Under the pieces are notes generated by a model that had not been told where the DNA came from, did not search any database, and worked only from the letters and a program-made list of their open reading frames with translations. The position numbers were made by a program, and so were the translations under genes. This document shows, piece after piece, positions 7,786 to 49,535 of a stretch of 64,000 nt of DNA (the first letter of the stretch is position 1; each line of letters begins with the position of its first letter). This DNA is from Nanobdellota archaeon (GTDB lineage: Archaea; Nanobdellota; Nanobdellia; Parvarchaeales; Parvarchaeaceae): positions 4,343-68,342 of the forward strand of contig JAKAVT010000001.1 of NCBI GenBank assembly GCA_021817165.1, given 5' to 3'.

Positions 7786-9171
7786 TTAACTGCAAACACC
7801 TAAAACATTTGTAGAATTACTTGATATGAATGCTTGAAGACAAGCAGCGACATCAGGTGCTGTTATCGTCCTATTAGTATAATACAAACCCAATTCAGCA
7901 TGGGCATCCGCTACGCCACTGTACCAGTAATTCATCTGTGGAGTACTAGGAGTTGGAGAGGTATGACCGTTCTCCTGTTCAAGTATCCCTTTTTCTATAG
8001 GACTAAACTCAGTTGCAGTTAAATTCTCAGCAGCTGCGAACGCTGGATCAAGAGTATTTATATTCGCATCCGAAATCAAACTATTCAATGCGGCGCTATC
8101 TGAAGGTAAATCTCCGGTACCATTATACATCAGAAGCTCTACTTGTGGTGATGCTAAGAATTGTGCAAATATGGTTGAGGCGTTGAGTTGCGCTGCCGTT
8201 GCACCGCTTGCTGCAGTTGATGAAACAGCTATTCCCTCAGAACCTATTAAAGGTGCAAAGTATAAACCTGTCGAGGAAAGTTGTGGAAGCGGAGCCGTAC
8301 CAAGATTGCTACCTAATGCTTTAACATAAGGAACGAGATCCCAAGGACCATCAAATATAACGGCTGCTTTTCCAGACTCGAACAAGGATCCCTCTAAACC
8401 ACCTGCTCCTGCTACGCCACTGCCTGAACCTAAAGGTGCATTTATGTGATCAACGTAAGTTAAATTATACCAAAACTCTAGGGCATTTATCATTGCAGAA
8501 TTGTTAAGCGTAACTGCACCCGTTGTTTTACCCGCGAATATATAAGTACCAAAGCCAGGCAGCCAAGCAGCAAATCTATAACCATAATCTGCACCCATGC
8601 CATAAGCTATGCCCCAAACGCCTGTTTTATTTATAGCCTGTAATTGTGAAATCAACGCATTTGTATTGTTAGCTATTCCGTTAGGGAAAAACTTCTTGTT
8701 ATAGTACATTAATATGGAATTTTCATTAACCGGCAAACCAAACATTGCATTTCCAGAGCTCTCTGCTGCAACTGTACCGCTGGTAAATTGATTGAAGTAA
8801 GATGCATTCGAAATATAATTCTTAAGATTTACTATGAAACCGCCTGCGTAAAGCAATCCTTCATCATTGCTTGAATCGTAATATACATTAGGAGCCTTGT
8901 GAGATGCTGCGTCCGTTTCGAAATTAGGGGTTGAAAGACTTACATTTGTAACTTCAACCTTAATGTTAGGATATGCCCGCTCGAACATTGGTAAAATTTT
9001 ACCATAAAAGACGGCGGATTCTTCTGGACTATACGCCTGCCAATAAGTTATAGTGACTGAAGAAGGTGTAGTAACCTTTACAGAAGAAGGATGATAAGTA
9101 GCTGCTACCACTGCAATTATTATAACGATTACAACAACGGCAATTATCACGCCAATTATTGAACTCTTCAT
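7786..9171 (-). CDS. Extracellular sugar-binding protein of the ABC importer
   Basis: N-terminal hydrophobic anchor IIGVIIAVVVIVIIIAVVAA. Its size and its position upstream of the permeases fit a binding protein. Confidence 0.7.
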   Translation of the reverse strand: MKSSIIGVIIAVVVIVIIIAVVAATYHPSSVKVTTPSSVTITYWQAYSPEESAVFYGKILPMFERAYPNIKVEVTNVSLSTPNFETDAASHKAPNVYYDSSNDEGLLYAGGFIVNLKNYISNASYFNQFTSGTVAAESSGNAMFGLPVNENSILMYYNKKFFPNGIANNTNALISQLQAINKTGVWGIAYGMGADYGYRFAAWLPGFGTYIFAGKTTGAVTLNNSAMINALEFWYNLTYVDHINAPLGSGSGVAGAGGLEGSLFESGKAAVIFDGPWDLVPYVKALGSNLGTAPLPQLSSTGLYFAPLIGSEGIAVSSTAASGATAAQLNASTIFAQFLASPQVELLMYNGTGDLPSDSAALNSLISDANINTLDPAFAAAENLTATEFSPIEKGILEQENGHTSPTPSTPQMNYWYSGVADAHAELGLYYTNRTITAPDVAACLQAFISSNSTNVLGVCS

Positions 9172-13922: not shown

Positions 13923-14240
13923 ATGATGGATTCAAATAGGAAAACGTATAGATTAGATGAGATACTTGGAAAACCTATTGTAATGTCCTCTGATAAAAAA
14001 ACCCTGATTTATGGATTGAACGTTAAAGACAGAGAAGTTGCAATTTCTGCATATTCAGAAAGCGAGTCAAGAACGGGATACTTCCATAAAGTAGAAATAG
14101 AATACCTGCCTGCTTCAATGTATCTGATAAATGGAAGCTGCACGTGCGAATCCTTTCAATACTACGGTATGCCATGCAAGCACATGCTAAAGGTAAGAAA
14201 CGTATACATTAAAAACAGGAATAAATTCAGTAAAGACTAG
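13923..14240 (+). CDS. Small stand-alone SWIM zinc-finger protein
   Basis: CxC-x(n)-CxH signature CTCESFQYYGMPCKH. Confidence 0.6.
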   Translation: MMDSNRKTYRLDEILGKPIVMSSDKKTLIYGLNVKDREVAISAYSESESRTGYFHKVEIEYLPASMYLINGSCTCESFQYYGMPCKHMLKVRNVYIKNRNKFSKD

Positions 14241-38459: not shown

Positions 38460-39042
38460 TTTTTACAGAGAGATATCGAAACTGGACAAAATAGAAAAAA
38501 ACAGTATCAGATTAGAGCAGTACAGCACTGACATTGATACGGCTTACCAATTTATACAGTTCATAGATTACAACGCCGGCATGAAAGGAAAAACGGTTGC
38601 GGATCTGGGTTGCGGAAATGGCATACTTGGGATATCTGCTGCATTGCTTGGTGCGGAGAAAGTTGACCTGTATGATATAGATGAAAAGGCAGTATACGCT
38701 GCGAAACAGAACATTGAAACATTGAAGGTTAAAAACGCAAACGCTATTTGCATTGACTTGTTTGACATAAAGAAAAAATACGACATAGTGGTTTCCAACC
38801 CCCCTTTTGGCTTCCAAAGCAGCTTTAATTTAAACGCATTCATTAAAAAGACAACTTCCATATCCGATAACGTATTTTTTATCTATAAAGACAATCAGGA
38901 AATAAGAAAAATCACTGAGAACACCGGTTTTTCAATATACAAAATAAGAGACATAAAATTGGAAAAAACACTGCCTTTTCACAAAAAAAGTTATTATAGT
39001 TTACCTGTTGTTATAGTCTATAAGACGACAAAAAATATATGA
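38446..39042 (+). CDS. SAM-dependent methyltransferase with NPPF motif (METTL5/N6-adenine-type)
   Basis: Motif [11 protein letters not shown] and motif IV SNPPFG. Confidence 0.75.
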
Positions 39043-39482
39043 AAGGCCAAATAAATTTGGGAACGTGGGTCCTTATAACTGCGATAGTAGCAATACTTAT
39101 CCTGCTGATATTTGATTCGACGATAAGAAGCTACATCTTAACAAATCTAAGCGGTCTTATAACAGGAATAAAATCCACCAGCCCCGGCCAGCTTTCCGAG
39201 GTCATAACGAACTTTACCGCGTATAACTGCAGTTCTGCATGCTCTACCTTTTCGAGTTCCATTTATTACTGGACGATAAATTTCAACGGCCAGAATTACA
39301 CATATTATTTAAATGACAGCATAGGGGTTAGTTCGTCTGCCGGTAATTACTCATTGGAGCTGTACCCTGTATTAACTTCTTCCGGTGAACTATGCTCTAA
39401 TGCGACGACATCTACACAGAAAACCAAAATACTTAAAGTCGCTGCGGACAAAAACTACAACATCTATTATTTTAGTTGCTAG
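39039..39482 (+). CDS. Secreted/surface protein with class III (type IV pilin-like) signal peptide
   Basis: MKGQ followed by hydrophobic [19 protein letters not shown]. The mature part is rich in sequons and Cys. Confidence 0.5.
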
Positions 39483-39535: not shown

Positions 39536-39727
39536 CTATGGAAGACTGTTATTTATTGAAGTAGTATTTGGAGAGGAGTGGATAAGATTGGTTAACGGCG
39601 AGAATATGCCGGTTTTAAGGAGAAAAATCAGTATCACCAGCAGCGCGAGCGCTATTATTATGATGATTATTATGGTTATACCCAACTCCATCCCTTTTTT
39701 GTCGATACGCATAGATTTTGATGTCAT
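39536..39727 (-). CDS. Small class III signal peptide (pilin-like) protein
   Basis: KKGMELGITIIIIIIIALALLVILIF. It is preferred over the mirror ORF at 39531-39731 (+). Confidence 0.4.
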   Translation of the reverse strand: MTSKSMRIDKKGMELGITIIIIIIIALALLVILIFLLKTGIFSPLTNLIHSSPNTTSINNSLP

Positions 39728-43112: not shown

Positions 43113-43198
43113 TTTACGCTTAAAATAGTTAACTTAAATCTGCAACGCTGGTTTTACTTTAATTACGTAAGCAGCTTAGCGGTCTGCAAGAATATAAG

Positions 43199-43282
43199 CG
43201 CTCAGGGAGGGATTCGGACCCTCAAGGGATTGCTCCCATAAGCTCTCCAGGCTTACGCGATGCCAGGTTACGCAACCTGAGC
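43199..43282 (-). tRNA. tRNA-Ser (anticodon GGA)
   Basis: Hand-folded: acceptor GCTCAGG/CCTGAGC, anticodon arm TAAGC-CTGGAGA-GCTTA, long variable arm GGGA-GCAA-TCCC, T arm GAGGG-TCCGAAT-CCCTC. Confidence 0.88.
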
Positions 43283-43361: not shown

Positions 43362-43634
43362 ATGGAAGAATGGTATAAACATCATAAAGGCAAAGCGGTA
43401 AAGGAAATAAAATTCAACGGCTACGAAGTCAAATACGTAAAAAAAGAGGAGCATGAAGACTTCCAGCCTAAAAACGACAAAACACCAATAAACATCGACA
43501 AAGAGCAGTTAAAAATAACCAAAAACGGAGAAAAGATAAAGGTAAGAAAAAAGGATAAATTAGCGATAATAGAGGCATTGAAGCAGGACAACGTCGATAA
43601 AGTGGATGAAATACTTAAGGCTCTGAAGAGCTGA
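43362..43634 (+). CDS. Small Lys-rich hypothetical protein
   Basis: ORF only. Confidence 0.4.
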   Translation: MEEWYKHHKGKAVKEIKFNGYEVKYVKKEEHEDFQPKNDKTPINIDKEQLKITKNGEKIKVRKKDKLAIIEALKQDNVDKVDEILKALKS

Positions 43635-43644
43635 TGATTTTGTT

Positions 43645-44055
43645 TTACTGATTTTCATCTAAACTTGAAATTAGCCCTTTCACCTTTGCGTAGATAATTT
43701 GGATTATCTTAATCTTTTCTTCGGCCGGAAGGCCTTCCAATGAAGGAACATACCAGTGTTCTGCCTTCTGTATATAACTTTCAGGTATAAGTATGCAATC
43801 TTTTGGATCGCAGACTATTATTATTTTATCTGCGCTTTTTAACAGATTAGAGGTTGGAGGCTTAGGAAACTGTTTGCTCATGTCTACACTGAACTTTTCC
43901 TTCATCAATTTTATGTCTAAGGGATCCAACCCATTTCCAACGGAACCACCGGCAGCGCTGACTGCTTTGTGCTTTTTAGTAAGCTTATTAAACACTGCCT
44001 CTGCTATCTGGCTCCTGCTATTGTTGTATTTGCAGATAAAAAGAACGAGCGCCAT
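43645..44055 (-). CDS. Low-molecular-weight phosphotyrosine phosphatase / ArsC-family protein
   Basis: Active-site loop CKYNNSRS (C-x5-R-S) at the N-terminus, plus VCDPKDC downstream. Confidence 0.8.
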   Translation of the reverse strand: MALVLFICKYNNSRSQIAEAVFNKLTKKHKAVSAAGGSVGNGLDPLDIKLMKEKFSVDMSKQFPKPPTSNLLKSADKIIIVCDPKDCILIPESYIQKAEHWYVPSLEGLPAEEKIKIIQIIYAKVKGLISSLDENQ

Positions 44056-44070
44056 TAAGATTTATTTAAA

Positions 44071-44445
44071 TTACTGTTTCATTATTCCGGCAATCTCATC
44101 CGAAGCTTTCTTTGACTCCAAAAGAATCAAACCGTAATTTGTATTAGGATCTATCATTATTGTAAGAATTGCATCTACTCCTGCCTGCACTGCCACTACT
44201 CTTATGTCCTTTGACTCGGCAACTACCCTTTCTAGCGTATTTTTTGCCCCTAAAGATTTAATGGCAGTCTCTGCCGAGCCGACCATCGAGGCAAGCATCG
44301 CCGCAAAAGTATTAGGATCTACGTCTTCCGGCATCAATGAAACCATCGGTAAACCATTAGCAGATATAACTGCCGATGCTTTGATTCCGCCTACGGTACT
44401 TAGTCTCTGTAAAACGCTTTTTAATTGCTCTGATTTTGTAGCCAT
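44071..44445 (-). CDS. Roadblock/LC7 (MglB-like) domain protein
   Basis: GIKASAVISANGLPMVS...AAMLASMVGSAE...RVVAVQAG..AILTIM matches the Robl/LC7 pattern. Confidence 0.8.
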   Translation of the reverse strand: MATKSEQLKSVLQRLSTVGGIKASAVISANGLPMVSLMPEDVDPNTFAAMLASMVGSAETAIKSLGAKNTLERVVAESKDIRVVAVQAGVDAILTIMIDPNTNYGLILLESKKASDEIAGIMKQ

Positions 44446-44475
44446 ATTTAATTTACAAATTCCTCATTTAAATAA

Positions 44476-45717
44476 TTATGTCAGCTGCTTAAAAAGAGAC
44501 GACAAGGCTTCTGTTATACCATTCTCTTTTAATTTAGTCGGCTGGTTTGGGTCTACTTTTGATAAGTCTTCTGCTACCGTTTGCACTAATGCTATCGCAG
44601 AATCAAGGTGCAGCTTTTCCCGTATCTCTTCCTTTTTCAGTGCTCCCTTAAGATCTGCTTTATTCGCTATCACTACAACCGGCAGGCCGTAAGTTTCCGT
44701 TTTTCTGAGCATTTCGACCGCTCTCGGAAACTGCTCCGGCTTAGTTGAGTCTACCACAAGGAATACCCCTATTGCCTCTCCTCCAAGCATTTTAAGCAGT
44801 GGATCGAACCTTTCCTGTCCGGGAGTACCGAACAGATCTGCACGATAACCCTGAAAATCGACACTCCCATGATCTAATGCTATCGTTCCGCCTAGCTTGT
44901 CTACACTCACGGCGTTCCTAGAAGCGCTGTGTATGAATGAGCTTTTACCCGCATCCGTAGGGCCTGTGACTAAAATCTTCGGGAAATAGACCTTTATTCC
45001 TCCCGGCTTAATAGCCTTAAACAGGACAGAGGAAAACGCTTGCTTCTCTCCTACCCAATCGCAGTTTAAAACCGCAAAGTACTGACCAAAAATCACGCGT
45101 TTCTCGATTCCCTTGACTTCTATTGTAGAATTGACGTTTGAAAGGAGTTTGTCAACGTTTTCCTTTTCGTAGCCCCAATCGGTAAATAGTAACACCGCTG
45201 CGGAATCTTTTCCGATTACTGCCTTTTTTATATCGTTCATAAACGATATTGCGAATGAAAAATCGAAGAAATCTGCAAGCAGTGAAAGCGAGTCTACAAC
45301 AAGAAGCCCGTATCCATTGTCAAGCTCTTTCAGAACCTTTGTCTTTACTTCTTCTTTGTCATAAGGATTACTTATCACTTTTATGTGGTCGGTTTCATCG
45401 GATTTTATTCCTGTTATACCGCTATAAGCATCTATTATGCACATATTGTCGTTAGCTGGGAAATCATACTCTTTCATCTCTGTCAAATAAGACTGAGGAG
45501 AGGTTCTGTTCAGAAGTATGAGTACTTTTACCCCTGAGGTTATGTTCTTGTGTATTATCTGGTAGCCAAACACTTCATTGCCTACAGATGGAGAAGCGGA
45601 GATTAGTACAAGTTTTTTTGACGGTATTCCCTTCAGCTGTTCGTCCAATTTAGCTATGCCAAAATAAGGGTCTACATCGTTTTCTTGTATACCGTCTAAT
45701 CCTTTATATTCGACCAT
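44476..45717 (-). CDS. Fusion protein: degenerate KaiC/RecA-like domain + MglA-like small GTPase
   Basis: The N-terminal ~245 aa have a KaiC-like layout (GIAKLDEQLKGIPSKKLVLISASPSVGNE, LLVVDSLS) but no GxxxxGK[ST]. The C-terminal ~165 aa carry G1 GPTDAGKS, G3 GTPGQERF and G4 NKAD. Confidence 0.7.
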   Translation of the reverse strand: MVEYKGLDGIQENDVDPYFGIAKLDEQLKGIPSKKLVLISASPSVGNEVFGYQIIHKNITSGVKVLILLNRTSPQSYLTEMKEYDFPANDNMCIIDAYSGITGIKSDETDHIKVISNPYDKEEVKTKVLKELDNGYGLLVVDSLSLLADFFDFSFAISFMNDIKKAVIGKDSAAVLLFTDWGYEKENVDKLLSNVNSTIEVKGIEKRVIFGQYFAVLNCDWVGEKQAFSSVLFKAIKPGGIKVYFPKILVTGPTDAGKSSFIHSASRNAVSVDKLGGTIALDHGSVDFQGYRADLFGTPGQERFDPLLKMLGGEAIGVFLVVDSTKPEQFPRAVEMLRKTETYGLPVVVIANKADLKGALKKEEIREKLHLDSAIALVQTVAEDLSKVDPNQPTKLKENGITEALSSLFKQLT

Positions 45718-45750
45718 ACAATAATATAGAAATAATTACTTTTAAATATA

Positions 45751-46419
45751 TCATTCAAGCTGCTTAAATTGAAGCACCTCCTTGCTGGTTCCAGATAGTC
45801 TGAAATATCTTTTTCCATCTTCAAGCTTTAAATCTATTATGGCGTCGGAGAGATTCTTTATGGTCTCTATAACGTCTTGCTTGTGCATACCAGTGTCTAC
45901 TGAAAACAAGGTCGTAATGCCTGCAAGCTTGGCTTTGCCGCATATGAATTGAAGGAATCTGTACACTGTCAAGGGATTATTGTATATTAGCAGATTAGAC
46001 AGATTGTCAAATATGTTTATAACTGGCTTTGCATCCTTTACAAAATCGCTGTTCGTGCTGGACAACGAAACGGATAAACCAGTTAAATCTAATGGGCCGT
46101 TGAGTATCTTTGCATATGAATTATCAGTAGCACTTGGAGAATTGGTCCTGCTGAAATCGTCCAATATTTTGAAATCTGCACCAAGATACTGATTTATGTT
46201 TATGCCCCTTGAATTGAATTCATTTATCAAATCGGAATATGATTTTGAAGTCAAAACGTAAACAATTGCATTTTTGGATGCAAGGGCAGATCGGACAAGA
46301 TTATATATAAACTGCTCTTTTCCGGACTCCTTGTCCCCAAACAAAGCATACACTTTTCTGTAATCCAAACCGCCGGTAAGCTCGTCAAATGATTTAAATC
46401 CGGTTTTTATCCCTTCCAT
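45751..46419 (-). CDS. KaiC/RecA-superfamily (ArlH-sized) ATPase-like protein with atypical Walker A
   Basis: GFKSFDELTGGLDYRKVYALFGDKESGKEQF. The Walker A ends in GKE instead of GK[ST]. Length is 222 aa. Confidence 0.65.
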   Translation of the reverse strand: MEGIKTGFKSFDELTGGLDYRKVYALFGDKESGKEQFIYNLVRSALASKNAIVYVLTSKSYSDLINEFNSRGININQYLGADFKILDDFSRTNSPSATDNSYAKILNGPLDLTGLSVSLSSTNSDFVKDAKPVINIFDNLSNLLIYNNPLTVYRFLQFICGKAKLAGITTLFSVDTGMHKQDVIETIKNLSDAIIDLKLEDGKRYFRLSGTSKEVLQFKQLE

Positions 46420-46422
46420 TTA

Positions 46423-47034
46423 TTATACTAACCTTACTTTTTTCGATTTTATGCCCATTGGTGAGCCGTCAACCTTCATTAAAATGTCTACAGTCAACTG
46501 ATCTTCCTGCCTTGAAAAGTTTATTTCCTCCGTTAACGATTCGTTTGCTGGCATGTTTATGAACGGGAACAGATAGTTTGATAGGCTTTTGAAAAGCTCC
46601 TTTTTTCCACTCTTTTTGAGCATTATAGCTATATTGTCGCTCATGTCCTGAGTTTCGACTAATTTAAAGTAATCCGTGTCTACTATTATGTCGGTTATGC
46701 TGTCATGCGGTAAACCTTTAAGATCTTCTATGATTGGGTCTATGTTCTCATCCGAGCCGAACTGCTTTGACACTGATTTCTGCTGGTTATTCTCCATGAA
46801 ATCAACGGTAAGCTTCACGGTTTTTATAAGGAAAAGACGTATTAATATATTGTATATTTTATAAAGCTTGATTGTCAGAGGATGCTGTGACTTGATTCTT
46901 ATAACTCCTTCTTTGTATTCAAGGCTTATTGACACCTTTTTATAACTTATCAAGCCGCTTATCTTCGAAAGTGAAGCGTTTTCATCATAAAAGCTTTTTA
47001 ATTCGTTTACTGCATCAAAAACATCGATTTCCAT
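46423..47034 (-). CDS. Hypothetical protein (cluster member)
   Basis: 3-nt gap to the KaiC-like gene. No motif recognised. Confidence 0.5.
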   Translation of the reverse strand: MEIDVFDAVNELKSFYDENASLSKISGLISYKKVSISLEYKEGVIRIKSQHPLTIKLYKIYNILIRLFLIKTVKLTVDFMENNQQKSVSKQFGSDENIDPIIEDLKGLPHDSITDIIVDTDYFKLVETQDMSDNIAIMLKKSGKKELFKSLSNYLFPFINMPANESLTEEINFSRQEDQLTVDILMKVDGSPMGIKSKKVRLV

Positions 47035-47073
47035 ATCATATAATATAACATTAAAGGATTTAAAATTGACCTT

Positions 47074-47709
47074 TCAACCAGCACATGCCCCCGTCGGAGA
47101 ACTTGCAGGGTCGTAGAGTATTTTCTCATCTGGAGATATCGTTATCTGGCCTCCCGAAACCGATTCTATCACCGCCACGTAACCTGCGCACCCCGTGCTT
47201 TCATTAAACCACAACGATATGTTTTTTCCGGTTTCAATGGCCACGTAATTATTCTGCAGGTTTTTGGTGTTTACCCAATTGACGTATTGCTGGTTAGTCA
47301 TAACGATAAAATTGGTAACTGCAGATGCATTATACAGCATATGCATTTTAAAAGTATCCGGTATCGTTAAAAACGAATACGAATCCGCAGCTAGGGAAGT
47401 CGGCTCGTTCCATATGGTTATTAGAGCGTTGCTGCCTAAAAATGAGAACGGCAGAGCAGAAACGTTTTGATTGTGTATTGCCAATGTAGAATTCGGGTAA
47501 TATGACAAAATAGACCTGTTTATTATTATGTTAACTCCATTATTAGGCAGACAGAATGGCCCTGAACCGTTCACTGCCAAAGTTGAATTTGAAAAATAGC
47601 ACGAATTGAAAACGACTATGTGCATTTTAAATGCATAGAATATCGCTGCTAGGATTACTATCAAAAGGACGGCCATCAATACATTCGTTAGAATACTTCT
47701 TTTCTTCAT
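47074..47709 (-). CDS. N-terminally anchored, sequon-rich extracellular protein
   Basis: MKKRSILTNVLMAVLLIVILAAIFYAF anchor, many N-x-S/T sequons and several Cys. Confidence 0.55.
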   Translation of the reverse strand: MKKRSILTNVLMAVLLIVILAAIFYAFKMHIVVFNSCYFSNSTLAVNGSGPFCLPNNGVNIIINRSILSYYPNSTLAIHNQNVSALPFSFLGSNALITIWNEPTSLAADSYSFLTIPDTFKMHMLYNASAVTNFIVMTNQQYVNWVNTKNLQNNYVAIETGKNISLWFNESTGCAGYVAVIESVSGGQITISPDEKILYDPASSPTGACAG

Positions 47710-47752
47710 TTACTAAGAACAAAACGATTGAATAAAAACCTTTAGTTAAACC

Positions 47753-48121
47753 CTAAGAATAACCGGCGGACAGACAATTATTATAACCCATAGTAGTCCC
47801 ATTCGACAAAACTATAGAAGAAGTATTAGTTCCCGGCGACACGGCTAGATTGGAATAGCAGTGGTAAACTCCAGAACCGGAGGGATTAGGTATACTATCA
47901 GAACACCACTCTTGAAAACCGAGGCTTGACGGTGTAGTAGAAGAATATGTTGAACATGTTGCTGAGAACGCAGATAATGTAGAGCTTGAAGGAGAAGCCG
48001 CTCCTAATCCTTTAAATCCTCCTAACACAAAAGTAATCAAAAGGACAAGTATAAGCAAACCTATTGCTATAAGTATAATAGTATTTATAGGCAAACCCTG
48101 TGCCTTTCTATTTAAAGCCAT
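47753..48121 (-). CDS. Type IV pilin-like protein (class III signal peptide)
   Basis: RKAQG followed by LPINTIILIAIGLLILVLLITFVL. The mature part is Ser/Thr-rich. Confidence 0.55.
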   Translation of the reverse strand: MALNRKAQGLPINTIILIAIGLLILVLLITFVLGGFKGLGAASPSSSTLSAFSATCSTYSSTTPSSLGFQEWCSDSIPNPSGSGVYHCYSNLAVSPGTNTSSIVLSNGTTMGYNNCLSAGYS

Positions 48122-48254
48122 ATTTACATACTAAAATTGATACTATTTAAATATTTCCGTTTTTAAAGTAAAATTGCAGCCAAAAATCAAGCATTTCCGC
48201 ATGCAAATTAAAGATTTATTAATGTTAAAGGAAATAGAATACACATTGTATGTA

Positions 48255-48299: not shown

Positions 48300-49535
48300 A
48301 TGAAAAGAGCATTTAAGTACAGAATATATCCAACGAAAGAGCAGGAAGAGAGCTTAAAAAAGCAGATAGAAGAAGCAAGAATACTTTATAACCTTCTTTT
48401 AGAAGCAAGTATCAAAGCATACAAGGAAGAGAAGAAGAGTATCTTAGGATATGATTTAAATGAATTAGCACTAAAGATAAGAAAGGAAAAGAGCCTTACG
48501 CATGTTTCAGCTCAGTCTGCCCAGGATGTAGCAGTAAGAATTTCTAAAGCATTCAAACAGTTTTTCAGGAAAGTTAAAGAAGGAAAGCATGGAAAAGCCG
48601 TCGGCTACCCGAGATTCAAATCATTTAATAGATATGACAGCATAACATTCCCTCAATACAATAATGGATTCAGGTTGCTTGATGACGATTTACTGTCTGT
48701 ATACGATGCAGGCATTCTGAAGATAAAATACTTGAAAGACATTGCAGGCAAGATAAAAGCTCTCACAATAAAAAAAGAACCTACAGGCAACTGGTATGCA
48801 ATAATCATAGCGGACGGACAATTCAAGAATGAAAACCATGTATGCAAAAGCGATAAAGTGGTTGGTATGGATGTCGGTCTTGCTTCCTTTATAGCTACTT
48901 CATATGGGGAACTGATAGAGAATCCAAAGATACTTAAGAACTCTGAAAAAATCCTTAAGATTAGGCACAGGCAGTTATATAAAAAGAAGAAAGGCTCAAA
49001 GAACAGAAATAAAGCAAGGATAAGACTGGCTAAGGCATACAATAAAGTGAAAAAGCAGAGAGAAACATTCCTGCACGGTCTGACTAATAAGATGATTAAG
49101 AATTACAAAATAATTGTTATTGAAAAATTGAACATAAAAGGAATGACAAAGAATCACTATCTCGCTAAATCCATTTTGGATGCATCGTGGAATGAGCTTG
49201 CAAGACAGTTAAACTACAAAGCGGAAGAAGCTGGTAGTGTGATTCTGCAAGTAGACCCGAGAAACACATCTAAAGCATGCAGCAATTGCGGATGGATAAA
49301 CAATGACTTAACACTTGCAGATAGGACATTTAAATGTCAAGAATGCGGCATTGAGCTCAACAGAGATGTAAATGCAGCAAGGAACATATTAAGGTTAGGT
49401 CTAGGTACTCTTGGCAGGAGAGGAACCGAATCAAACGCCTGTGGAGATGAAGCCACTACTATGGGGAAACCTATAGCAAGCATTGTCACAGAAGCAGGAA
49501 AGTCGGGAAGTGACTTATACTTTCGGAACTACTGA
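48300..49535 (+). CDS. tnpB: TnpB (IS200/IS605-family OrfB, RNA-guided-nuclease type), apparently intact
   Basis: KYRIYPTKEQ N-terminus, RuvC-like residues in GMDVGL, VIEKLN and NRDVNAARNI, and zinc finger CSNCG...CQECG. There is no tnpA nearby. Confidence 0.9.
   Translation: MKRAFKYRIYPTKEQEESLKKQIEEARILYNLLLEASIKAYKEEKKSILGYDLNELALKIRKEKSLTHVSAQSAQDVAVRISKAFKQFFRKVKEGKHGKAVGYPRFKSFNRYDSITFPQYNNGFRLLDDDLLSVYDAGILKIKYLKDIAGKIKALTIKKEPTGNWYAIIIADGQFKNENHVCKSDKVVGMDVGLASFIATSYGELIENPKILKNSEKILKIRHRQLYKKKKGSKNRNKARIRLAKAYNKVKKQRETFLHGLTNKMIKNYKIIVIEKLNIKGMTKNHYLAKSILDASWNELARQLNYKAEEAGSVILQVDPRNTSKACSNCGWINNDLTLADRTFKCQECGIELNRDVNAARNILRLGLGTLGRRGTESNACGDEATTMGKPIASIVTEAGKSGSDLYFRNY
49518..49534 (+). 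repeat. Right terminal inverted repeat (overlaps tnpB stop codon)
   Basis: See the mobile element entry. Confidence 0.85.

Follow-up and report, generated by a model that had tools for sequence, protein, structure and literature searches.

What does a seven-gene cluster do that places pilin-like surface proteins beside KaiC-like domains, a small GTPase, a Roadblock/LC7 protein and a putative phosphatase? The cluster lies at positions 43645 to 48121 of a 64-kb stretch of contig JAKAVT010000001.1 (hereafter the window; 64,000 nt in full) from Candidatus Parvarchaeota, an ARMAN-like DPANN archaeon and acid-mine organism, and its genes are labelled W1 through W7 in cluster order on the minus strand (Table 1). 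A preliminary description of the window had interpreted them as a self-contained signalling module in which a GTPase-Roadblock switch, together with KaiC autophosphorylation reversed by a low-molecular-weight (LMW) phosphatase, acts on a type IV pilus-like filament. Our analysis leaves this interpretation partly supported. The comparative data indicate that the cluster is made of layers of different age, a conserved core trio (W4-W5-W6) and lineage-specific genes that were added around it. The reading to which we lean, with modest confidence, is that the trio is an ancient archaeal three-gene nucleotide-switch module, the output of which in Parvarchaeota and several DPANN lineages may well be a type IV pilus-like filament.

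The seven same-strand open reading frames (ORFs), their coordinates and the short gaps between them (43, 39, 3, 33, 30 and 15 nt from W1 to W7) were all as first described. The motifs quoted for W4, W5 and W7 were all found in the translations, and the calls of KaiC-like, small GTPase, Robl_LC7 and LMWPc domains were upheld by Pfam and NCBIfam profile searches. To place the cluster among its relatives, at least 565 stretches encoding the W5 fusion were confirmed in GTDB species genomes, 79 loci were fetched, and the window proteins W1-W7 were searched against the six-frame ORFs of 81 loci. A W4 homologue was present in 78 of the 81, and in 78 a Roadblock gene (W6) adjoined the fusion gene, which bears out the proposed pairing of GTPase and Roadblock protein. 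The order W4-W5-W6 is kept on one strand, with the genes abutting or overlapping, in ~65 loci, and the trio is co-oriented in nearly all 81. The lineages represented include Parvarchaeota, Methanosarcinales, ANME-2, Methanoperedens, Archaeoglobaceae, Altiarchaeota, Woesearchaeota, Hydrothermarchaeales, Methanocellales, Thermoplasmatota and Methanobacterium. W1, W2 and W3 were found in eight Parvarchaeota loci only, and W7 in the four closest only. Co-occurrence in relatives was therefore confirmed for the syntenic W4-W5-W6 and not for the lineage-restricted W1, W2, W3 and W7, and the self-contained seven-gene module shrinks to three widely conserved genes. In two Halobacteriota metagenome-assembled genomes (L012, L018) the module is locally duplicated: a stretch of ~10 kb holds the fusion gene twice and three or four genes for Roadblock proteins. 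In a further set of loci (L002, L024, L025 and others from Methanoperedens/Methanosarcinales; L067, L077 from Thermoplasmata) the trio is followed by genes for CRS1_YhbY, ribosomal protein S19e and a dsDNA-binding (PDCD5-like) protein, a housekeeping synteny that is conserved.

The central protein of the trio, W5, joins a KaiC-like domain (residues ~20-244) to a small GTPase (residues ~246-413). It is 100% identical to a Candidatus Parvarchaeota protein and has >1000 full-length homologues across archaea. The N-terminal region matched the FlaH subfamily (E 3e-11), DUF7090 and PF06745 (E 4.7e-5; 23.3 bits, just below gathering). None of the 84 orthologues compared has a P-loop or GK[ST] in this domain, and the residues at that position are P-G-V-E. 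Since the P-loop is missing from every orthologue, we call the domain, as judged by sequence, an inactivated KaiC domain. The GTPase region matched Arf (E 2e-11) and TIGR00231 (E 1e-16, above cut-off). Its motifs are G1 GPTDAGKS (GxxxxGK[ST] in 84/84), G2 T278 (Thr in 84/84), G3 GTPGQ, which reads FGTPGQERFD in the window (G-T-P-G-Q present in 84, 82, 84, 84 and 84 of the 84, residue by residue), and G4 NKAD (NKxD in 83/84). The residue preceding the G2 Thr is T in 75 of the 84, G in the window and other Parvarchaeota, and never R.

In the published classification, MglA Groups 2-5 are marked by GTPGQ at G3, carry a Thr where the intrinsic Arg finger would be and co-evolve with MglB; for one of them, the archaeal Group 4, conserved neighbours had not been reported (PMC4316618). 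W5 shares with these groups GTPGQ instead of DxxGQ, the lack of an Arg finger and an adjoining Roadblock gene. It departs from Group 1, which has TVPGQ and an Arg at the finger position, and from the single-domain build of MglA (~160-200 aa), as the GTPase is the C-terminal half of the fusion in all relatives. None of the NCBIfam MglA models matched W5, and a plain sequence search placed its GTPase domain nearest Arf and Rab structures. The earlier label of an MglA-like GTPase, with GTPGQ conserved in the orthologues, is justified at the level of the Groups 2-5 branch and not of the Myxococcus-type Group 1.

W4 is a solo KaiC-like protein. It matched PF06745 (E 2e-10; 40.8 bits against a gathering threshold of 26.6), a match that denotes fold-family membership only, and DUF7504 (E 3e-9), and a sequence search of the PDB matched nothing. 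W4 and the N-terminal domain of W5 are weak but detectable paralogues, and each protein carries one KaiC-like domain and not the duplicated CI-CII arrangement of KaiC. Against the NCBIfam ArlH equivalog, which has a cut-off of 215 bits, W4 scored 24.4 bits and W5 17.8 bits. The Walker A of W4 reads GDKESGKE and is deviant, with GK-E in place of GK[ST]. All 64 orthologues keep the P-loop Lys, which is followed by E in 38, D in 16 and S in 7, and in no case by T; either D or N stands at the Walker B Asp position. At the position of the putative catalytic Glu, 41 of the 64 relatives have E and the window has K (TSKS). This pattern of residues suggests that W4 probably binds nucleotide but hydrolyses it poorly.

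The third member, W6, matched Robl_LC7 (E 3e-14; 52.8 bits against a cut-off of 23) and reached 16.6 bits against the 200 of the NCBIfam MglB equivalog. The W6 family carries an RDGL motif in which the Asp position is D in 78, N in 5 and E in 3 sequences and the Gly is present in 86/86; the window and its close relatives read ANGL, with N for D. An Asp-Gly pair has been noted for the MglBs of Groups 2-5 (PMC4316618).

What the trio acts on is suggested by its neighbourhoods in DPANN genomes. One strand of L087 (Nanoarchaeota) carries the genes for four class III pilins, for T2SSE and two T2SSF, and for the fusion, a small membrane protein and Roadblock. At L019 (Nanoarchaeia), a KaiC-pilin operon ends in the fusion gene and is divergent from T2SSE, T2SSF and another pilin gene. 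In L069 and L073 a group of four class III pilin-like genes, one of which encodes 1592 aa, lies divergent from the fusion and ~1 kb upstream of it, and at L007 a second, different pilin-like gene directly follows Roadblock. T2SSE and T2SSF adjoin the fusion in L019 and L087 only. In a neighbour-joining tree of the fusion, the four pilus-linked groups (L087; L019; L069/L073; Parvarchaeota) fall on separate branches, and their fusions are <=53% identical to each other and interleaved with lineages lacking pilus neighbours. The pilin, T2SSE and T2SSF genes on these four branches give independent support to the link with a type IV pilus-like filament that had been drawn from the window. The pilin calls near the fusion rest on inspection of N-termini and not on a regular-expression scan for class III signals, which was noisy (0.15/kb near the core versus 0.07/kb further away), returned many false matches and missed the L069 pilins. 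A phmmer search of the 81 loci with the L019 T2SSE and T2SSF proteins found L001/L019 itself only, and L087 was found via its Pfam context. Comparative genomics had already flagged KaiC-family ATPases and the Roadblock family arCOG02603 as frequent in archaeal type IV pilus loci (PMC4858521), and Parvarchaeales genomes encode flaHIJ and pilins (PMC10134863).

Possible inputs are visible in Woesearchaeota-like loci, where genes for PAS, HAMP, Cache, FIST and MASE3 sensors, solute-binding proteins and a second Roadblock protein are interleaved with the module (L059, L021, L022, L087-L091). Such sensors inside the module are absent at the window locus. The loci L087-L091 are long same-strand arrays holding the fusion, Roadblocks, sensors, solute-binding proteins and a DUF7504 KaiC-like gene, and a gene for a TrmB regulator lies upstream in L088-L091.

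Several observations weigh against a pilus as the output. The window holds no assembly ATPase, platform protein or prepilin peptidase over its 64 kb, and a phmmer search of all window ORFs with the L019 proteins returned no T2SSE or T2SSF homologue, in agreement with the preliminary description. Most loci lack pilus genes within 10 kb of the core, and in Methanosarcinales, Methanoperedens and Thermoplasmata the core sits among genes for YhbY, S19e, cysteinyl-tRNA synthetase and other housekeeping functions. W1 and W2 are restricted to Parvarchaeota, and their adjacency to the core could be inherited order. One Parvarchaeota locus whose fusion has 66% identity (L082) encodes W1-W6 followed by an unrelated peptidase on the opposite strand, and it also keeps the genes for threonyl-tRNA synthetase (ThrRS), an AP endonuclease and a nucleotidyltransferase nearby; since this wider synteny is kept, gene order in Parvarchaeota appears to be broadly inherited. 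The apparent enrichment of pilus genes by the fusion in DPANN is suggestive.

Putative transcription signals, which suggest separate transcription units, also weigh against the pilus reading. TATA-like boxes were located over the upstream regions of ~70 window genes. TTTAAA/TTTATA hexamers cluster at -24 to -32 from start codons wherever a real spacer exists, a position that implies mostly leaderless mRNAs. Boxes of this kind stand at -30, -30, -29 and -27 before W1, W3, W5 and W6; W2 and W4 have none, W7 has one at -15 only, and a T5 run follows the W1 stop codon. The likely transcription units, as predicted from these signals, are W1(-W2), W3-W4, W5 and W6-W7. A single seven-gene transcript is doubtful in view of the genome-typical boxes before four of the genes. 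Same-strand runs with ~30-nt spacers are ordinary in this compact genome, so that the tight arrangement alone is no proof of an operon.

These observations are what would be expected if the core were a general or housekeeping GTPase signalling module and W1, W2 and W7 its neighbours only through the compactness of the genome and gene order inherited within Parvarchaeota. This alternative is favoured by the setting of the core in Methanoperedens, Methanosarcinales and Thermoplasmata, where its neighbours are ribosomal and other housekeeping genes, by the occurrence of W1 and W2 in one clade that also keeps its wider synteny, by the presence of W7 in only four loci and by the separate TATA-like boxes before W1, W3, W5 and W6. 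Same-strand spacers of ~30 nt with their own box are common elsewhere in the window (those ahead of the genes that start at 13923, 16614, 26757 and 27687, for instance). It does not explain why pilin or other type IV pilus genes adjoin the fusion on four branches, why L087 is an uninterrupted same-strand array, why L007 has a different pilin gene after Roadblock, or why KaiC and Roadblock genes recur in archaeal type IV pilus loci (PMC4858521). We regard the housekeeping alternative as possible but not as the likelier account.

The protein at the head of the cluster supports a filament as the output. W1 begins with NRKA/QGLPINTIILIAIGLLILVLL (the slash marks the cleavage site), a class III signal, and the signal [RK][KA][AG]/QGLPINTIILIA was found in 8/8 Parvarchaeota orthologues, with the first 40 residues conserved as [RK][KA][AG]/QGLPINTIILIA[IV]GLLILVL. 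The C-terminal head is variable and Ser/Thr-rich, and has 4 Cys that are retained in orthologues. A [KR][GA] motif, a ~20-residue hydrophobic helix, a conserved N-terminus and a variable head are the marks of archaeal type IV pilins, and by these features the W1 pattern looks typical of such a pilin. W1 was seen only in the Parvarchaeota loci L003-L010 and L082. It matched none of the curated pilin families (Class_IIIsignal, Pilin_N and similar), no Pfam or NCBIfam family was matched by W1, W2 or W3, and W1 and W2 gave no match at E <= 0.1. Two further ORFs with canonical class III N-termini, ~4 kb downstream of the cluster (39039-39482, with an MKG/ signal, and 39536-39727, with KKG/MELGITIIIII), may be additional pilin-like proteins; neither matched Pfam.

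The second surface protein was judged differently. W2, which is confined to Parvarchaeota, has 8 N-glycosylation sequons, 4 invariant Cys, an N-terminal membrane helix and a beta-sandwich/jelly-roll ectodomain. Its AlphaFold2 (AF2) model (pLDDT 76) consists of a transmembrane helix and a generic beta-sandwich, for which Foldseek returned only generic GOLD, carbohydrate-binding module (CBM) and lectin-like beta-sandwiches. W2 was considered as a second pilin and rejected, because no conserved cleavage motif is seen at its N-terminus and its fold is generic. From its sequence and model we read W2 as an anchored surface glycoprotein and not as a pilin. The description of W1 and W2 as pilin-like surface proteins accordingly stands for W1, with its conserved class III signal, and falls for W2.

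A glycosylated, disulfide-bonded ectodomain of CBM or lectin type that is conserved in this way would also suit a module whose target in Parvarchaeota is a different function of the envelope (secretion, the display of glycoproteins or the site of host contact, for instance), with W2 as the partner and W1 as a non-filament protein. In L087 and L090 the module itself contains genes for extracellular binding proteins (solute-binding protein, Cache), and in L059 it is flanked by Sec-signal surface proteins. A class III signal is moreover carried by a solute-binding protein in the window, so the signal is no proof of a pilus. W1, however, has the pattern of a pilin, with a hydrophobic N-terminal helix that is conserved and a small head that varies; W2 is almost without a cytoplasmic portion for signalling, and complete type IV pilus operons adjoin the module in L087 and L019. 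We consider such an envelope function improbable. The solute-binding protein in question belongs to an ABC transporter (SBP_bac_1/8) and has a weak Pilin_N match at its N-terminus (MKSS/IIGVIIAVVV), a feature reminiscent of the Sulfolobus bindosome, whose sugar-binding proteins carry class III signals.

W3, which ends 3 nt before W4, was found by word search in Parvarchaeota only, and a profile search of 1.8e9 representatives found only 10 relatives. One of these, in L083 (hhalign 98%; fusion ~50% identical), likewise lies just upstream of the KaiC-like gene, which it overlaps, and has no pilin gene upstream of it; W3 thus abuts the core in Parvarchaeota and one sister lineage only. Distant homologues (L084 6001-6645, L085 1698-2345, L086 2808-3455) do not stand beside KaiC or GTPase genes, and a Sec61-beta gene is near those in L084 and L086. 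The AF2 model of W3 (pLDDT 91.5) found no fold match in PDB or BFVD, and the protein had no PADLOC match. A partial resemblance to Roadblock/LAMTOR proteins was too weak (match probability ~0.3, TM score <0.3) and was not accepted. Given the L083 homologue at the same position and the distant homologues away from the module, W3 appears to be a DPANN-specific cytoplasmic accessory that joins the core in Parvarchaeales-related lineages.

The last gene of the cluster bears on whether the module includes a phospho-switch. W7 matched LMWPc (E 1e-11; 45.5 bits against a gathering threshold of 23.2), and its P-loop, C8KYNNSR14S (CKYNNSRS), conforms to CX5R(S/T). The fold and P-loop of an LMW phosphatase were thus correctly recognised, but its identity as a phosphatase did not hold. 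The best NCBIfam matches were ArsC families (45.4 bits against a cut-off of 174.3), and 14 of the 16 PDB matches were arsenate reductases, including those of Corynebacterium (3rh0, 3t38) and A. fulgidus (1y1l) and the ArsC proteins of B. subtilis and S. aureus. No bona fide LMW protein tyrosine phosphatase was among the 16, and the sole match with phosphatase in its name had an E value of 5e-3. W7 has exactly three Cys (Cys8, Cys82 and Cys87), which are conserved in 5/5 sequences, and in the alignment Cys82 and Cys87 fall on the two paired Cys of A. fulgidus 1y1l. This pattern matches the thioredoxin-coupled ArsC of the pI258 type (Cys10, Cys82, Cys89). The DP general acid is missing, and the aligned region reads HWYVPSLEG. 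W7 resembles the pI258/B. subtilis type of ArsC in its LMWP fold, its CX5R(S) P-loop and two downstream Cys; it differs in the spacing of these Cys (82/87 versus 82/89), in scoring below the NCBIfam cut-offs, in the absence of the DDP/DP Asp and in its context, with no ars genes (arsR, arsB or ACR3) adjacent.

W7 follows W6 by 2-15 nt in the window and in L003-L006, the only loci that have it, where the fusion is >=86% identical; it is absent from Parvarchaeota relatives at <=73% identity. In relatives without W7 the Roadblock gene is directly followed by other genes, a convergent 90-aa ORF (L008, L009) or the pilin-like gene of L007, which indicates that W7 is a recent add-on. In an acid-mine organism, W7 is, on sequence grounds, more credible as an arsenate-reductase-like enzyme than as a partner to the KaiC-like proteins, and it is probably not part of the switch. 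The model of a seven-gene module with KaiC autophosphorylation reversed by an LMW phosphatase, alongside a GTPase-Roadblock switch on the pilus, draws on fold-level family assignments that are correct, on the closeness of W7 to W6 and on ArlH, a KaiC-like protein that autophosphorylates and regulates the archaellum motor (work cited in PMC4858521). Set against it are the GK-E/D of the W4 family and the missing catalytic Glu of the window copy, the P-loop-less N-terminal domain of W5 in 84/84 orthologues, and a W7 with an ArsC-like Cys triad and no DP acid that is also absent from other lineages. We hold this model to be very improbable; "KaiC plus phosphatase" was an over-reading of a degenerate ATPase fold beside an arsenate-reductase-like enzyme.

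From the observed gene content, motifs, conservation and neighbourhoods we infer the following interactions for the trio and its putative pilus output. The KaiC-like domains of W4 and W5 would form a catalytically weak RecA-type scaffold, probably a hetero-oligomer, on which the W5 GTPase, with intact G1-G4 and catalytic Gln, would cycle between GTP and GDP. A W6 Roadblock dimer would set this cycle in the role of GAP (GTPase-activating protein) or GEF (guanine nucleotide exchange factor), by analogy with MglB-MglA and Ragulator-Rag. Inputs, where present, would be the membrane sensors (Cache, HAMP, PAS, FIST) whose genes lie within the module of Woesearchaeota-like genomes. An effector would read the switch, and in several DPANN lineages this effector is probably the machinery of the type IV pilus; the output would be to assemble or position a type IV pilus-like filament made of W1. 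A KaiC-like domain may dock on a pilus- or archaellum-type ATPase as ArlH does on ArlI, and this docking partner would be encoded elsewhere in the genome. W2 would be a surface glycoprotein co-located with the pilin W1, W3 a cytoplasmic accessory of the core, and W7 an enzyme appended in one subclade. A more specific version, in which the fusion is an ArlH-like subunit beneath the pilus or archaellum ATPase and an MglA/MglB-style GTP switch times or places the attachment pilus of host-dependent DPANN archaea, is speculative and, in our estimate, rather unlikely. If true, it would make the ArlH-like fusion an archaeal analogue of bacterial pilus polarity control that evolved independently on a KaiC scaffold.

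The features of the locus and the other window features mentioned are collected in Table 1. Upstream of W1, 178 nt from its start, lies a TnpB/IS605-OrfB gene with Cas12f1-like TNB, OrfB_IS605 and HTH domains. It is not at this spot in L003, L004, L006 and L008, and L005 keeps a truncated remnant, which suggests a recent insertion. The other flank holds a lysine-rich 90-aa ORF convergent on the 3' end of the cluster (it occupies this site in L003, L004 and L006-L009 too, and matched no family), a tRNA-Ser (GGA) gene and the ThrRS gene. The tRNA-Ser was called by ARAGORN, and an Rfam scan of RNA elements at gathering threshold gave tRNAs only, namely two others. A defence-system reading was dropped, as PADLOC returned nothing meaningful.

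Table 1. Coordinates of the cluster genes, the core trio and other features in the window.
Feature	Coordinates	Strand	Basis or remark
W1, type IV pilin-like protein, 122 aa	47753-48121	-	class III signal conserved in 8 orthologues
W1 putative promoter, TATA-like box ATATTTAAATA ~30 nt 5' of ATG	48140-48160	-	position fits genome-wide placement; function inferred
W2, membrane-anchored exoprotein, 211 aa	47074-47709	-	ORF, sequons, Cys, AF2 model
W3, cytoplasmic protein, 203 aa, unknown fold	46423-47034	-	ORF, AF2, profile search
W4, single-domain KaiC/RecA-like protein (DUF7504 type), 222 aa	45751-46419	-	PF06745, DUF7504
W5, inactivated KaiC-like domain + MglA-group GTPase, 413 aa	44476-45717	-	profiles, motifs in 84 orthologues
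W6, Roadblock/LC7 (MglB-like) protein, 124 aa, predicted regulator of the W5 GTPase	44071-44445	-	Robl_LC7
W7, LMWP-fold protein, most like thioredoxin-coupled arsenate reductase, 136 aa	43645-44055	-	LMWPc, Cys pattern
Core trio W4-W5-W6	44071-46419	-	conserved across archaea
TnpB/IS605-OrfB gene	48300-49535	+	Cas12f1-like TNB, OrfB_IS605, HTH
90-aa lysine-rich ORF	43362-43634	+	
tRNA-Ser (GGA)	43198-43282	-	ARAGORN
ORF with class III N-terminus	39039-39482	+	MKG/ signal
ORF with class III N-terminus	39536-39727	-	KKG/ signal
ABC solute-binding protein	7786-9171	-	SBP_bac_1/8, weak Pilin_N match

The regulation of archaeal type IV pili is poorly understood, and how DPANN archaea control their putative host-contact filaments is not known at all. 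The trio is a concrete and testable candidate for an archaeal small-GTPase pathway whose >1000 homologues are annotated just as "GTP-binding protein", and a possible output is suggested by its repeated siting beside pilus operons in genomes that are reduced. With the trio, the theme of MglA/MglB and Roadblock-GTPase pairs, which bears on the origin of eukaryotic GTPase regulation, reaches a new scaffold.

Among known systems, the MglA/MglB pair of Myxococcus xanthus and Thermus thermophilus is like W5/W6 in that a gene for a Ras-superfamily GTPase, with a G3 lacking the canonical Asp, stands beside a Roadblock/LC7 gene. In Myxococcus the output of this pair includes type IV pilus placement. 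W5 differs from MglA of Group 1 in the G3 and Arg-finger residues described above and in a G2 region that reads TT (GT in the window), and from MglA at large in its fusion to an inactivated KaiC domain and in having a second KaiC-like partner, W4. The window module has no RomR/RomX or Frz homologues, and its host is a tiny coccoid archaeon. The conservons (CvnA-D), which are Group 2-5 systems, likewise combine a GTPGQ GTPase and an MglB-type Roadblock protein with sensors in a conserved operon, and their GTPase is thought to be the output (PMC4316618). Pfam and NCBIfam searches of the window found equivalents of the Roadblock protein and the GTPGQ GTPase only, with no match to a histidine kinase or DUF742. 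The core thus differs from a conservon in lacking a histidine-kinase-like CvnA and a DUF742 CvnC and in having KaiC-like domains at the scaffold position. The Woesearchaeota-like loci come closer to the actinobacterial conservon logic, in which a sensor, Roadblock and GTPGQ GTPase act together, with Cache, HAMP, PAS or FIST sensors where conservons have CvnA.

ArlH (FlaH) is like W4 and the N-terminal domain of W5 in its single-domain KaiC/RecA fold, and ArlH-type families are the nearest named NCBIfam families; at L087 the fusion follows T2SSE/T2SSF much as arlH accompanies arlI and arlJ. ArlH has a functional Walker A, unlike the GK-E of W4 and the N-terminal domain of W5, and the window has no arlI or arlJ. 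Archaeal KaiC-centred hubs, which combine KaiC-like and inactivated KaiC domains with diverse signalling domains (work cited in PMC5847659), resemble W4 and W5 in just this joining of domains. The eukaryotic Rag GTPase-Ragulator/LAMTOR system and the Asgard Roadblock-GTPase pairs are like W6 in using Roadblock-fold dimers as platforms or regulators of small GTPases; the core differs in having no longin or Rag C-terminal roadblock domain, a GTPase of the MglA-like GTPGQ branch and a KaiC-like scaffold. Our literature search found no account of the inactivated KaiC-GTPase fusion with its partners or of its DPANN pilus context, and the 2017 survey of KaiC hubs may catalogue the fusion. Taken singly, the parts are familiar: pairs of the MglA/MglB type, accessories that resemble KaiC/ArlH, and class III pilins.

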